Shown here piece by piece: positions 2,184 through 5,868 of a stretch of 6,659 nt of DNA. The position numbers and the translations under genes are program-made. A model generated the notes under the pieces. That model made no database searches. It saw nothing but the letters and a program-made list of their open reading frames with translations, and was not told the origin of the DNA. The stretch lies in IMG/VR virus record IMGVR_UViG_3300018467_000013; one strand, written 5' to 3'. The stretch is from a virus (Duplodnaviria > Heunggongvirae > Uroviricota > Caudoviricetes). Numbering within the stretch: position 1 is the first letter of the stretch; each line of letters begins with the position of its first letter.

Positions 2184-2259
2184 GCCGATATAGCTCAGTT
2201 GGTAGAGCAGCGCATTCGTAATGCGAAGGTCGTAGGTTCGACTCCTATTATCGGCACCA
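2184..2259 (+). tRNA. thrW: tRNA-Thr, anticodon CGU
   Basis: 76-nt sequence GCCGATATAGCTCAGTTGGTAGAGCAGCGCATTCGTAATGCGAAGGTCGTAGGTTCGACTCCTATTATCGGCACCA folds as a cloverleaf: 7-bp acceptor stem (GCCGATA/TATCGGC), D-arm AGCTC/GAGC, anticodon loop TTCGTAA with CGT, T-arm GTAGG/CCTAT with TTCGACT loop, encoded CCA end. Position directly downstream of proA matches the thrW locus. Confidence 0.92.
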
Positions 2260-2262
2260 TTC

Positions 2263-2425
2263 TAACGTCTCCCCAAGTCTACTCAAGTATTTAAAAACCT
2301 CTTATAATCCGCATGTTAGCGCCCCTTTTAGTCTTTTGACGTCTACTTAAGTACCCCAAAATCTACAGTCAATTGGGGGTACTTTTGGGGGTATTTGCTG
2401 TTCGGTTTAGTGGAGGTACCCCCAA
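2263..2425. repeat. attL-proximal repeat cluster, candidate integrase arm-type and excisionase binding sites
   Basis: Direct repeats GTCTACT(C/T)AAGTA at 2277-2289 and 2341-2353. G5TA/TAC5 motifs in inverted pairs: GTACCCCAAAA 2351-2361 with TTTTGGGGGTA 2384-2394, and TTGGGGGTAC 2373-2382 with GGTACCCCCAA 2416-2425. The last copy overlaps the integrase ribosome-binding site and GTG start. Confidence 0.5.
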
Positions 2426-3640
2426 GTGAAACTCAATGCCCGTCAAATAGACACTGCCAAGCCAAAAGAGAAGGCTTACAAGCTGGCTGATGGTGGTGGT
2501 CTGTATCTCCTGGTAAAACCTAGTGGAGGAAAATACTGGCGCTTTAAATATCGTGTAGCTGGTAAAGAGAAGCTGTTAGCACTAGGTGTGTATCCTGAAG
2601 TTACCTTGGCTGATGCTCGTGCAAAACGTGAAGAAGCTAAAAGGGGTATCGCTGGGGGTATCGATCCGATGGAAGCGAAACGAGAGGAAAAGATTGCCCG
2701 GGAAACGCAGTTAAACAATACCTTCAAAGATATTGCCCTTGAGTGGCACAGCAGCAAATTAAAAAAATGGTCTGCTGGTTATGCTTCAGATATCCTCGAA
2801 GCCTTCAACAAAGATGTGTTCCCTTACATTGGCAAAAAACCAATTGCCGAAATCAAACCACTTGAACTTCTGAATGTGCTGCGACGCATCGAGGGGCGCG
2901 GTGCTACAGAAAAAGCCAAAAAAGTGAGGCAGCGGTGCGGGGAAGTTTTCCGCTATGCAATAGTCACTGGTCGCGCAGAGTATAACCCTGCCCCAGATCT
3001 TACTAGCGCGATGCAAGGCCATGAATCTAATCATTATCCTTTCCTCACAGCCAAAGAATTGCCTGATTTTTTCAAGGCATTGTCCAGTTACTCAGGAAGT
3101 GCATTGGTTGTTATGGCGGCTCGTCTACTGATTATCACTGGTTTGCGAACTGGCGAACTGCGCGGTGCATTATGGGATGAAATCGATCTCAACAAGGCTA
3201 TCTGGGAGATACCTGCTTCACGGATGAAAATGCGTCGCCCTCATGTGGTGCCTTTGTCTAAGCAGGCTCTTTCTCTTATTGGGCAGATTAAAGAATTAAC
3301 TGGTAATTATCCGCTTATGTTTCCCGGCCGTAATGATCCAAGGAAAACAATGAGCGAGGCTAGCATAAACCAAGTATTTAAACGCATCGGCTATAACGGA
3401 AAGGTTACTGGTCATGGATTCCGGCACACCATGAGCACGATTTTACATGAGCAGGGCTATAACACCGCGTGGATAGAAACGCAGCTTGCACACGTTGATA
3501 AGAACTCAATTCGTGGCACGTACAATCATGCGCAATATCTGGACGGGCGGCGCGAGATGCTCCAGTGGTACGCCGACTATATGGATTCGCTCGAACATGG
3601 CGGTAACGTGGTGCATGGCAAGTTCGGAAAATGTGGATGA
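2426..3640 (+). CDS. Site-specific tyrosine recombinase, P4-family phage integrase
   Basis: 404-aa ORF with GTG start and a GGAGGT ribosome-binding site 8 bp upstream. The N-terminus (KLADGGGLYLLVKPSGGKYWRFKYRVAGKEKLLALGVYPEV) resembles the arm-binding domain of P4-type integrases. The C-terminal catalytic domain carries conserved R (RTGELRGALWDEIDL), the H-x-x-R box (HGFRHT) and the tyrosine nucleophile region (RGTYNHAQY). The gene is adjacent to the tRNA. Confidence 0.92.
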   Translation: MKLNARQIDTAKPKEKAYKLADGGGLYLLVKPSGGKYWRFKYRVAGKEKLLALGVYPEVTLADARAKREEAKRGIAGGIDPMEAKREEKIARETQLNNTFKDIALEWHSSKLKKWSAGYASDILEAFNKDVFPYIGKKPIAEIKPLELLNVLRRIEGRGATEKAKKVRQRCGEVFRYAIVTGRAEYNPAPDLTSAMQGHESNHYPFLTAKELPDFFKALSSYSGSALVVMAARLLIITGLRTGELRGALWDEIDLNKAIWEIPASRMKMRRPHVVPLSKQALSLIGQIKELTGNYPLMFPGRNDPRKTMSEASINQVFKRIGYNGKVTGHGFRHTMSTILHEQGYNTAWIETQLAHVDKNSIRGTYNHAQYLDGRREMLQWYADYMDSLEHGGNVVHGKFGKCG

Positions 3641-3762
3641 CTGGTTGCGTATACAGTAGTAGACTTTGAGCGACGAAAGAAAAGGCTGTGTCTAGGGTCG
3701 CTCCCGAAAATCCGTACACCTCGACGGACTGGTACAGCCACTACAGTAGAGGACGCTGAGGT

Positions 3763-4566
3763 GTGCGTATGATTGATATTCATGCCGAATTAAACGAATA
3801 CAAAAAAGATTTTATTTCTTTACGTGAATTTCTTGAGGTCGTGCTTAAGGTCGCTGGTGATGATTATGATGTTTCAGATGTCATAACTTGGATACTCAGG
3901 AGAATAAGCGGAGAACATATCCGCCTGTACACAGTAAATGAATTTAAGCTGTTGGAATCTTTTTGTAACCCGTATCGGGATGAATTTGATTATGATGTTC
4001 TTTATAGAAATCTGAATGCGGTTCGGAAACGTGGTTGTTTACCTGGTGAGAGGGATGAAAATGGTTTTCTGGTGTCCGGTTATTGGGAAGATCCCGAATT
4101 TGAGAACATTGGATTTATAAGGGGTGAAATTTTCGCAATTTTTCCCGATGTCCTTGACGCGTTAACGAAGCTGGAAGGCGCTAACTCTTCTGAAAATGAC
4201 GAGGCACAAGGACGCGATATTGAAAAGAAAGAGTTGCGTACAGAGGATGATTTATTATCCCAAATCGCAATGCTGGAAAAAGAAAACGCAGAGTTAAGGG
4301 CAAGGATAGAGCAGTTAGAGCAAGAGCGCCCGATACACTTATATAAATACTGGGATAAAGACCCATTAGCTAAGGCTATTGAGATTAGAAACAGAGAGTG
4401 GGCCAATTACGATCCAGAAAATGATTTTGCCACCAGGGGAAATCAAGAAGCGATAACCAGGGAGCTTAAGCAGTGGGGGGCAAGTAATGCACTTGCAACG
4501 CTCATAGAGAGGACTGCCTGCCCTATTAACCGAGACAACAGCCAAAAGAACGCAAAGCCGGATTAA
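3763..4566 (+). CDS. Hypothetical acidic coiled-coil protein (267 aa), orphan island cargo of unknown function
   Basis: Clean 804-bp ORF with GAGGT ribosome-binding site 7 bp before the ATG. It is strongly AT-rich relative to its flanks. The protein has a large excess of D/E over K/R, a central heptad-like segment (LLSQIAMLEKENAELRARIEQLEQER), and no Walker A, HTH or other motif I can recognise. It sits in the first cargo slot downstream of the integrase. Confidence 0.7.
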   Translation: MRMIDIHAELNEYKKDFISLREFLEVVLKVAGDDYDVSDVITWILRRISGEHIRLYTVNEFKLLESFCNPYRDEFDYDVLYRNLNAVRKRGCLPGERDENGFLVSGYWEDPEFENIGFIRGEIFAIFPDVLDALTKLEGANSSENDEAQGRDIEKKELRTEDDLLSQIAMLEKENAELRARIEQLEQERPIHLYKYWDKDPLAKAIEIRNREWANYDPENDFATRGNQEAITRELKQWGASNALATLIERTACPINRDNSQKNAKPD

Positions 4567-4581
4567 CGCACCATACCGCAT

Positions 4582-4723
4582 ACCCTGAGGGTGATTTACT
4601 GTTACCCTGAGGGTATTTTTTATCTTCCCCGTCAATTTTACCATCACCCTTAGGGTAGATTTCCTCCCGATTACCATCACCCTTAGGGTTAATTTCCTTC
4701 CGGTAACCATTAGGCCTGAGGGT
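4582..4723. repeat. Phased array of five near-palindromic 11-mers ACCCT(G/T)AGGGT, including 2.5 tandem copies of a ~33-bp unit; candidate operator or iteron array
   Basis: Copies at 4582-4592 and 4604-4614 (ACCCTGAGGGT), 4646-4656 and 4679-4689 (ACCCTTAGGGT, each within TTACCATCACCCTTAGGGT), and a degenerate copy at 4713-4723 (GGCCTGAGGGT). Start-to-start spacings are 22, 42, 33 and 34 bp, roughly whole helical turns. The array lies in the 226-bp gap between the orphan gene and alpA. Confidence 0.65.
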
Positions 4724-4792
4724 ATGAAAATATTCGTTATTTCTGTGCCATGATTACCTCGTCAAATTGAGTAGACGTTATGAGGTAAATAT

Positions 4793-4990
4793 ATGTCAAA
4801 TACGCTTATTCGTTTAACAGAAGTTCAGCGTAGAACTGGATATAGCAAGGCATGGATTTATCGCCTTATGGGGCAAGGTAAATTTCCTGTATCAGTTAAA
4901 ATTGGCTCGCGAGCTATTGCTTTCGTTGAGAGTGAAATTGACGAGTGGATTAATCAGCGTATTGCGGAATCACGCGGAACAGCTACCTGA
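4793..4990 (+). CDS. alpA: AlpA-family phage/island transcriptional regulator (Vis/Xis-like, MerR-type HTH)
   Basis: 65-aa ORF with GAGGT ribosome-binding site 9 bp upstream. The sequence LIRLTEVQRRTGYSKAWIYRLMGQGKFPVSVKIGSRAIAFVESEIDEWINQR matches the AlpA/Vis family signature (HTH followed by the ESEIDEW motif). Such genes typically sit near P4-type integrases. Confidence 0.85.
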   Translation: MSNTLIRLTEVQRRTGYSKAWIYRLMGQGKFPVSVKIGSRAIAFVESEIDEWINQRIAESRGTAT

Positions 4991-5067: not shown

Positions 5068-5868
5068 ATGAAATTTCCAAAAACGCCCGTACAGGGGCGG
5101 GGCTTCGTTCGGCCTGAAAACCAGAATCTGCAAAATTTCGGCGAAATTATCCCGATTATTTCCGGCGTTATTGGCGGGAGTGAAACCACTATTGTTAGCG
5201 CCAGAGCGTTACATAAGGCGTTAGGTGTAGGGCGCGTTTTCCGTTCGTGGATCAAGGGGCGCATTGAAGAATACGGGTTCACGGAAGGCGTGGATTATGA
5301 GGTTGTTGAATATTTGAGCCGACCCGATCCGGTGAGCGCAAAATCTCGCCAGCAAACCGCTCTTGAGTACATCATCACAGTGAACATGGCGAAAGAACTG
5401 GCGATGGTCGAACGTACCGAACAGGGCCGCGCCGTTCGCCAGTACTTTATCAAATGCGAGGAGGAGCTACACAAGGTTGCGCCTGTTCGTTCCGCAGCGT
5501 TACGCCGGGAACTGAAAGCCCGTATCACAGTTGCCAGCTACTTTAAGCCAATGTGTGCCGCGCTGGAGGCGTACCGGGCTGAACTGGGTAAAAACACGTT
5601 CCAGCACCACTACACCACGGAAGCCAATATGCTGGCGCGTATCGTGCTGGGTGGCATGACTGCAAAACAGTGGGCGCAGGCGAACGGCATCACAGGCGAA
5701 CCACGCGACCACATGAGCACGTTGCAGCTTGAGCACCTTTCTTACCTTGAGCAGAGCAATATCACGCTGATTGAGTTAGGCCAGGGCTACCACCAGCGGA
5801 AAGCTGAATTAATTCGTCTTTCGCAGCGTTGGTTAGCCCGTCGCATGGAGGAAAACAGCCATGTGTAA
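5068..5868 (+). CDS. Phage antirepressor-like protein with AntA/AntB-type N-terminal domain
   Basis: 266-aa ORF with AGGAG ribosome-binding site 7 bp upstream. The N-terminal segment SARALHKALGVGRVFRSWIKGRIEEYGFTEGVDYEV resembles the AntA/AntB antirepressor domain consensus. G+C is closer to host-like, and the gene is co-directional with alpA. Family assignment is from memory of the domain signature, not from a search. Confidence 0.65.
   Translation: MKFPKTPVQGRGFVRPENQNLQNFGEIIPIISGVIGGSETTIVSARALHKALGVGRVFRSWIKGRIEEYGFTEGVDYEVVEYLSRPDPVSAKSRQQTALEYIITVNMAKELAMVERTEQGRAVRQYFIKCEEELHKVAPVRSAALRRELKARITVASYFKPMCAALEAYRAELGKNTFQHHYTTEANMLARIVLGGMTAKQWAQANGITGEPRDHMSTLQLEHLSYLEQSNITLIELGQGYHQRKAELIRLSQRWLARRMEENSHV

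Follow-up and report, generated by a model that had tools for sequence, protein, structure and literature searches.

A helically phased dyad array upstream of alpA in a phage satellite island and its candidate link to a neighbouring orphan gene

The DNA analysed here (IMG/VR virus record IMGVR_UViG_3300018467_000013; 6,659 nucleotides in all, referred to as the window) is the left end of a Gram-negative satellite of the phage-inducible chromosomal island (PICI) type inserted at a tRNA-Thr gene, and the element in question is an array of 11-bp dyads, with ACCCT and AGGGT arms around one central base, in the 226-bp gap (4567-4792) between an orphan gene and alpA. A sequence-only reading of this DNA had taken the repeats for either a cooperative operator array controlling alpA or the iterons of a replication origin. 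The former proved to be the right class, the sites being dyad-symmetric, phased, conserved and located 5' of a predicted extended -10 element, and the latter was not borne out. We consider it very likely that the dyads constitute a protein-binding regulatory array for the alpA promoter (PalpA). Our best reading of the comparative data, to which we assign a probability of about 0.5, is that they would be operators bound by the orphan protein and would belong to an exchangeable regulator-plus-operator cassette controlling PalpA; for the orphan protein as the specific binder, taken on its own, we put the odds at about even.

Co-inheritance of the orphan gene and the array

Loci of alpA were sampled by AlpA homology alone, and 67 unique upstream contexts were scored for an array, defined as at least two dyads at <=1 mismatch within the 300 bp upstream. 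All 31 contexts strongly matching the C-terminal domain of the orphan protein (E <= 5e-26) carried an array, as opposed to none of the 27 without a match and none of the 9 with a remote paralogue only (E about 1e-6 to 1e-8); in these 36 contexts not one dyad was found within 300 bp, with 1 mismatch allowed. Islands with and without the orphan gene and array shared the same or nearly the same AlpA. Two such pairs (L221 with both versus L220 with neither, and L224 with both versus L228 with neither) had AlpA proteins identical at 65/65 residues, a third (L200 with both versus L208 with neither) at 60/65, and the similarity between members started just 33-39 bp before the ATG. Between the window and locus L006, similarity ended just past int (about 3688) and resumed at 4772. 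The boundaries, one just past int and the other 21-39 bp ahead of the alpA ATG, imply that the orphan open reading frame (ORF), the sites and the -10 element are exchanged as one block, which would span from the RF02996 RNA motif to the alpA leader. L006 and L005, both devoid of orphan gene and array, encode an AlpA two residues off the commonest allele and three off that of the window.

Orphan-type genes were accompanied by dyads beside other downstream genes as well. At L230 an orphan-type gene was followed by ACCCTTAGGGT and TACCCTATGGGTA and then by a gene for a 78-aa protein without detectable similarity to this AlpA, and at L047 an orphan-type gene and three dyads were followed by a convergent XRE repressor gene. 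Other cassettes in the slot had different upstream ORF families and different repeats in the 300 bp before alpA, namely ACCGCAATTGCGGT (two copies, 21-22 bp apart), TGCATGCA (two copies), direct repeats of ACTTCCAAA (four to six copies), inverted repeats of TGACATGACA and CACCTGGATTG, and GGTGGGCACC-type motifs, the last found with remote paralogues of the orphan C-terminal domain. Such pairing of ORF family with repeat family is what cognate regulators and operators would be expected to show. The RF02996 motif, which lies between int and the orphan gene and does not adjoin alpA, was also present at 9 related loci whose cassettes differ, again 5' of the variable ORF, and in the window (3685-3752) it marks the conserved left border of the exchangeable cassette, or variable slot. 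At least seven other upstream-ORF families were encountered in the slot, each with its own repeat family, some of these being long inverted repeats (L179, L184, L195-L198, L203, L204, L208, L209, L216, L219 and L222).

The orphan protein was modelled by AlphaFold2 (mean predicted local distance difference test score, 81.6) as a variable N-terminal domain, a long helix (aa 161-188) and a conserved C-terminal domain. The long helix is a putative coiled-coil dimerisation element in this model, and a homologue in RefSeq carries the annotation "coiled-coil domain-containing protein". Of the three parts, only the C-terminal domain is common to every protein that precedes such an array. Its core, the last ~60 residues, was located at the C-terminal end of almost all family representatives listed, which ranged from 64 to 515 aa and had unrelated N-terminal parts, and the domain also stands alone as proteins of 61-83 aa; its family comprised 138 representative clusters among 1.84 billion. 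Structural neighbours of the domain were weak matches, mostly to winged-helix or helix-turn-helix (HTH) DNA-binding domains, and no family match for the orphan protein was obtained in Pfam, NCBIfam, PHROG or PADLOC.

Composition, conservation and promoter context of the array

The motif ACCCTKAGGGT had exactly 4 matches in the window, all of them within the array (Table 1), against 0.01 exact copies expected from shuffled sequence; 0/200 shuffles reached four, so that the motif count withstood the shuffle comparison put forward with the sequence-only reading. Five copies had been claimed there, of which the four exact dyads stand; the fifth (GGCCTGAGGGT, 4713-4723) has two mismatches to the motif. 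At that stringency the window total of 5 versus 1.6 expected (3/200 shuffles reached 5) is no longer remarkable and the fifth copy alone is not significant; it is better read as part of a separate 16-bp dyad, which in some relatives is a perfect palindrome (CCATTAGGCCTAATGG). From one start to the next the five copies are 22, 42, 33 and 34 bp apart. These intervals and the length of the gap were reproduced as first described, as was the tandem duplication, the two 33-bp units (4638-4670 and 4671-4703) being 88% identical and the degenerate third copy (4596-4628) 64%. Among E. coli strains the unit count varies between 1, 2 and 3, always by whole three-turn units. The antisense ORF noticed earlier was likewise found (4366..4710, minus strand, 114 aa, with LTLRVMV, STLRVMV and NTLRVTV); it extends from the array into the 3' end of the orphan gene, and is a reading-frame by-product of the 33-bp repeat rather than a gene.

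In E. coli EC11 (L001), where a 99.8% identical stretch represents a closely related island copy, the motif was absent at <=1 mismatch from the remainder of the 29-kb stretch covering that copy. Searching the literature for four motif variants yielded only irrelevant eukaryotic primer or sequence matches. When the motif was set against the operators of NarL/NarP (7-2-7), MqsA and lambda CI, only the half-sites were alike and the spacing was wrong.

Table 1. Positions of the features in the window; dyad centres are given relative to the predicted PalpA start
Feature	Position	Strand	Remarks
tRNA-Thr(CGT)	2184-2259		
int, P4-type tyrosine integrase	2426-3640		
int-alpA RNA motif (Rfam RF02996)	3685..3752	+	45.5 bits, gathering score 35.8; directly 3' of int
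Orphan gene	3769..4566	+	265 aa from ATG; 267 aa from GTG at 3763; hypothetical in RefSeq
Long-helix codons	4243..4326	+	aa 161-188 of the 267-aa form, AlphaFold2 secondary structure
Conserved C-terminal four-helix domain codons	4354..4533	+	aa 198-257; invariant W, IExxACPIxR
Dyad 1, ACCCTGAGGGT	4582..4592		centre about -174
Dyad 2, ACCCTGAGGGT	4604..4614		centre about -152; T-run after dyad, not kept in relatives
Two tandem 33-bp units, three helical turns each	4638..4703		copy number 1-3 between strains
Dyad 3, ACCCTTAGGGT	4646..4656		centre about -110; inside first 33-bp unit
Dyad 4, ACCCTTAGGGT	4679..4689		centre about -77; position-invariant dyad
Promoter-proximal 16-bp dyad, CCATTAGGCCTGAGGG	4707..4722		centre about -46; includes the degenerate fifth copy of the sequence-only reading
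Predicted extended -10, TGcCATGAT (TGCCATGAT)	4746..4754	+	consensus TGnnAnnAT, alignment of 24 lineages
alpA leader hairpin	4755..4787	+	3' arm contains Shine-Dalgarno (GAGG, 4782-4785)
alpA	4793..4990	+	Phage_AlpA PF05930, E = 4.6e-19
AntA/AntB-domain gene (antA-like)	5068-5868		

Viral contigs were scanned for two dyads 8-38 bp apart, which gave 53 loci, about 36 of them islands of the same type (int, orphan gene, array, alpA) with identities of 34-100% for the orphan protein, 73-100% for AlpA and 61-100% for Int. Searches with the orphan C-terminal domain added metagenomic contigs and islands of Kluyvera, Raoultella, Pantoea, Symbiopectobacterium, Cedecea, Atlantibacter, Xenorhabdus, Photorhabdus and Pasteurellaceae. 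Each enterobacterial lineage carrying the motif had 2-5 dyads (median 3-4) even though the spacers could not be aligned. The 63 sites compared came from 26 diverged lineages of several enterobacterial genera, in which distal spacers share <30% of 8-mers; each of the 10 specified positions was kept in 54-63 of the 63 sites, the central base was random (A9 C16 G20 T18) and the outer flanks were loose. In this comparison with related islands, which the sequence-only reading had proposed as a check, motif and phasing were kept across genera while the flanks diverged, a pattern suggesting that purifying selection acts on the sites only as the surrounding DNA changes.

Left flanks often hold a third half-site (ACCCT-T-ACCCT-N-AGGGT), of which the TTACCATC flank of the window is the degenerate equivalent. 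A TTACCAT flank was also considered as a separate conserved (AlpA) site and rejected, as it is not kept in relatives and a third ACCCT half-site is found there instead. Distant variants occurred in Photorhabdus (ACTATCAGGGT) and Cedecea (ACCCTGATAGT), and in Pasteurellaceae the layout is different, with ACCCT and AGGGT half-sites still present. In the subfamily of orphan-type proteins ending in ...IEKIACPI(N/D)RKKN (L125, L126, L130, L134-L136 and L141-L143; Pasteurellaceae-type), a long hairpin followed by a T-run lies about 40-80 bp after the orphan-type gene. The stem of this hairpin differs between loci with compensatory changes, and the structure is probably a true terminator; after it, CCCTATATC-type direct repeats replace the dyads in the Pasteurellaceae-type contigs.

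Neighbouring dyads were spaced 21-24, 32-34, 42-44, 55, 67 or 76 bp apart, with a lone exception of 29 bp, and the best period was 10.7-10.8 bp (Rayleigh R = 0.82, mean phase near zero, for lineages that share ancestry and are not independent samples). A period of about 10.8 bp puts the dyads on the same side of the double helix, and the phasing shows that indels disturbing it were not tolerated between the sites. In most lineages the centre of the proximal full dyad lies 108-109 bp ahead of the alpA ATG.

On the 3' side of the array, the 16-bp dyad is followed by the conserved TGnnAnnAT and then by the leader. The alignment suggests that TGnnAnnAT is an extended -10 element without a -35, which would place the PalpA start at about 4761; this agrees with a consensus scan, in which no full sigma-70 promoter was found ahead of alpA. 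No sigma-54 promoter was seen by eye. Single-sequence folds of eight leader variants from different cassettes gave a common hairpin design with differing stem sequences at -5 to -18 kcal/mol, that of the window being weak at -7.3. Because the predicted PalpA start falls within the 5' arm of this hairpin, the ribosome-binding site would be free in PalpA transcripts but not in those reading through from int and the orphan gene, possibly a fold-back insulation like that of IS10.

Proposed mechanism and rival explanations

If the orphan protein is the binder, its dimers would bind the dyads cooperatively along the same helical face and so control PalpA, with the conserved C-terminal four-helix domain contacting the dyads and the preceding long helix providing dimerisation; orphan gene, operators and core promoter would make up a single exchangeable cassette bounded by int and the alpA leader. 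In the quiescent island the orphan protein would be made along with int and would hold the self-activating alpA promoter shut; a product of the helper phage would then bring about release, its target being either the variable N-terminal part or the DNA-binding domain. We favour repression somewhat over helper-triggered activation by the same protein for several reasons. No promoter or terminator consensus was found between int and the orphan gene, which is therefore probably co-expressed with int during quiescence. AlpA autoregulates positively and its over-expression leads to runaway replication (PMC6092414), so that a brake is needed. Photorhabdus and Xenorhabdus have minimal versions, in which a putative DNA-binding-domain-only protein is paired with a single site that abuts the -10 element, ending about 9 bp before its TG, and the variable N-terminal parts resemble the sensor diversity of Stl in staphylococcal pathogenicity islands (SaPIs). 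More tentatively, the int-alpA interval may be a hypervariable slot for exchangeable sensor-regulator cassettes, a functional counterpart of SaPI Stl, each with operators and a core promoter of its own and each setting the inducing helper, and the ~60-residue ...IExVACPIxR domain may be a new DNA-binding module that reads ACCCT half-sites 6 bp apart; we hold this wider proposal to be possible rather than probable.

Several observations weigh against the orphan protein as the regulator that binds the array. The assignment is correlative throughout, and with only 15 bp between the orphan stop codon and the array, linkage alone would yield co-inheritance. No sequence match to a solved structure or known family was found for the protein; its C-terminal domain is roughly neutral in charge by count, which is atypical of DNA-binding domains, and the residues of the presumed recognition region differ among proteins that adjoin the same motif. 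A centre-to-centre distance of 6 bp between half-sites is unusually short for two HTH units, and most sites, at -77 to -174, occupy positions more typical of activators than of repressors. In EcCICFT073, moreover, there is no ORF between int and alpA and PalpA is still helper-responsive (PMC6092414), so that such a cassette is not universal.

The dyads might instead be sites for a transcription factor from another source (an activator of the helper phage most plausibly, failing that a host regulator) that switches on alpA directly while the orphan gene is merely linked, an explanation we regard as a genuine though minority possibility. A promoter without a -35, the activator-like positions of most sites and an orphan protein without a recognisable DNA-binding domain would all suit such a factor, and so would the P4 late promoter located 5' of the alpA homologue vis, which we take to be activated via a dyad site. 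Helper phages are also known to activate PalpA in EcCICFT073 and EcCIMP1 (PMC6092414; PMC11773190), and accessory genes are known to adjoin int in PICIs (PMC6092414). A factor from elsewhere would, however, need a second, unexplained coupling to account for the perfect association with the orphan family (31/31 versus 0/36), which persists at identities as low as 34%, across several genera and where the downstream protein is unrelated, and each alternative cassette has its own ORF together with its own repeats. Nor was any phage with an orphan-type array in a helper-like context present among the viral contigs scanned: the scan for paired dyads returned mostly the satellites themselves, plus unrelated tandem repeats. 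One hit of that scan, a 127-kb contig (L060, IMGVR_UViG_3300037313_000197; 84-8049) with no match among deposited phages, contained 21 copies of ACCCTNAGGGT in 14 kb, most of them about 10 nt downstream of TGTCAA, and these look like a phage-specific promoter or regulatory motif; a high-GC contig (L055, 4508-6972) contained four pairs 18-19 bp apart.

Binding by the orphan protein might serve another purpose, such as partition at a centromere-like site, packaging, or a transcriptional roadblock and insulator at the 3' end of an int-orphan operon, but we consider this improbable. Phased multi-copy arrays beside the gene of their binder are typical of plasmid centromeres, and the array begins 15 bp past the orphan stop codon much as sopC follows sopB and parS follows parB; in L047, moreover, the next confirmed gene past the array is the convergent XRE repressor gene, not alpA. 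Yet no partition ATPase or terminase gene is adjacent, the fixed distance to the alpA ATG and the -10 element across lineages argues for a promoter function, and L047 and L230 have homologous leaders, with a small ORF following in L230, so that L047 looks rearranged; a roadblock would be compatible with control of PalpA by the orphan protein and is in part included in it. About as improbable are sites for AlpA itself, in positive autoregulation or an excisionase-like role. AlpA does activate its own promoter in EcCICFT073 and EcCIMP1 (PMC6092414; PMC11773190) and the array lies within that promoter region, but the motif was wholly missing from islands whose AlpA is 65/65 identical, was kept where the downstream protein is unrelated (L230), and had no copy near the att end or other promoters in L001; excisionase-type proteins usually bind direct repeats, and EcCICFT073 has 10-bp phased direct repeats. 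Repeated, phased and intergenic as they are, the dyads are very unlikely to be iterons: the array is upstream of alpA and holds no AT-rich unwinding element (4582-4723), and it swaps along with a non-replication gene while the primase module stays. In Gram-negative PICIs the origin follows pri-rep and consists of an AT-rich region between two sets of iterons (PMC6092414), and in the EC11 island copy a stretch of exactly this canonical kind just past the primase gene (L001 20560-20920), with unrelated GTAGACRGTTGGTAGACAG iterons, direct and inverted, around an AT-rich stretch, is the probable replication origin. Least credible of all are RNA or DNA hairpins, such as terminators of the orphan gene. 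A scan flagged 4581-4593 and 4603-4615 as terminator-like, and T6 follows copy 2; against this, the stem is just 4-5 bp with a loop of 1-3 nt, the T-run follows copy 2 only and is missing in relatives, and what is conserved is the sequence itself, not pairing with compensatory change. A structured RNA was rejected as well, as no Rfam family covers the array region, the RF02996 match lying outside it.

AlpA, the N-terminal domain of Int and the antA-like protein had all been proposed as binders, and none of them co-varied with the motif. Arm-type sites for Int were rejected because L006 has a 99.8% identical Int and no array, and arrays occur with Int proteins only 61-67% identical; the array is 2.3 kb from the tRNA end. 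Sites for AntA were rejected because AntA is present without an array in L005-L007 and several array-bearing islands lack AntA. A weak relation to GGGGGTA repeats had also been entertained. This heptamer occurs 4 times in the window versus 0.32 expected (2375-2381, plus strand; 2387-2393, plus; 2417-2423, minus; 2654-2660, plus), and the three copies clustered just 5' of the int start codon (at 2375, 2387 and 2417) adjoin int, the same Int occurring without the array; the cluster probably consists of arm-type sites or of sites regulating int, and is unrelated to the array at alpA.

Island context and comparison with known systems

The genes of the window are, in order, proB, proA, tRNA-Thr(CGT), int, the orphan gene, alpA and the AntA/AntB-domain gene. 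Gram-negative PICIs have a four-zone layout (PMC6092414; PMC10111431), and the PICI-type arrangement of int, alpA, a Bro/Ant zone, a primase followed by its ori, and capsid-related genes, all in one direction at a tRNA site, was matched by tRNA-Thr, int, alpA and antA in the window and by the remainder in the EC11 copy, where an Icd-like gene, small ORFs, DNA primase, ori, ProQ/FinO, PerC and DUF2213 follow in one direction. The intergenic region that holds the array was present in 148 of 5,426 complete E. coli genomes. P4-type immunity RNA genes (C4 antisense RNA, a1/b1 targets, isrK) were found 3' of alpA in related islands (L022 4857-5084, L061 6804-6989, L070 5331-5416, and L198 and L204 at about 3060-3190), and none scored above threshold in the window.

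In related PICIs the satellite cycle is under the control of AlpA as master activator (PMC6092414; PMC11773190), and since Gram-negative PICIs were described the question has been how the islands stay silent and how a helper phage turns on alpA. No operator has been defined for PalpA of EcCICFT073 or EcCIMP1 (PMC6092414; PMC11773190), and the 2025 EcCIMP1 paper still treats this promoter as a black box; in the literature searched we found no described Gram-negative PICI repressor or alpA operator, and no description of the orphan protein family, the dyad motif or a cassette at the int-alpA slot. The array supplies a defined cis element, 11-bp dyads of known position and phase, together with a named candidate trans factor. 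Should the regulator-plus-operator cassette be real, module exchange would explain the helper specificity of satellites, a new small DNA-binding domain would be added, and parts would become available for PICI-based delivery vehicles with controllable induction.

Among known systems, PalpA of EcCICFT073 and EcCIMP1 belongs to the same element class, with alpA after int, and is helper-induced and AlpA-autoactivated (PMC6092414; PMC11773190). EcCICFT073 differs in having no int-alpA ORF, 10-bp phased GAACAAC-type direct repeats instead of dyads, and a distant AlpA allele. In its 365-bp int-alpA spacer (L149, E. coli CFT073) there are five or six such repeats plus a second set beside alpA (L149 7188-7252 and 7449-7473); they are candidate AlpA sites and apparently undescribed. 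PLL-vis of P4 is alike in that a helper-responsive promoter beside int, with dyad-symmetric upstream sites, drives a gene of the AlpA/Vis family. The PLL site for Delta and Ogr is presumably a single TGT-N12-ACA dyad, whereas the window array has 4-6 copies of a different, tighter dyad and an extra upstream gene. A further likeness to P4 is the presence of C4 and isrK immunity RNAs 3' of alpA in relatives of the window island (PMC10111431).

Plasmid centromere systems (ParR-parC, SopB-sopC and the omega heptads) likewise have helically phased multi-copy sites beside the binder gene, and some of these double as promoter operators; in contrast to them, the array has no partition motor, keeps a fixed distance to alpA and resides in an integrated satellite. 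The immunity cassettes of lambdoid phages also exchange a regulator and its cognate operators as a module and have multiple cooperative dyad operators, but they differ in gene order, protein family and operator layout, the sites here being upstream of the promoter and phased over about 140 bp. In Stl and the stl-str region of staphylococcal islands, finally, a variable regulator gene beside int controls the promoter of the satellite cycle, and different islands hold non-homologous versions, as would be the case here, with release by a helper-phage protein proposed for the window island after the SaPI paradigm (PMC6092414). Stl is divergently transcribed, whereas the orphan gene points the same way as alpA and encodes a protein whose conserved domain, of no recognisable family, is at the C terminus; the repression proposed here would be directed at an activator gene, alpA.

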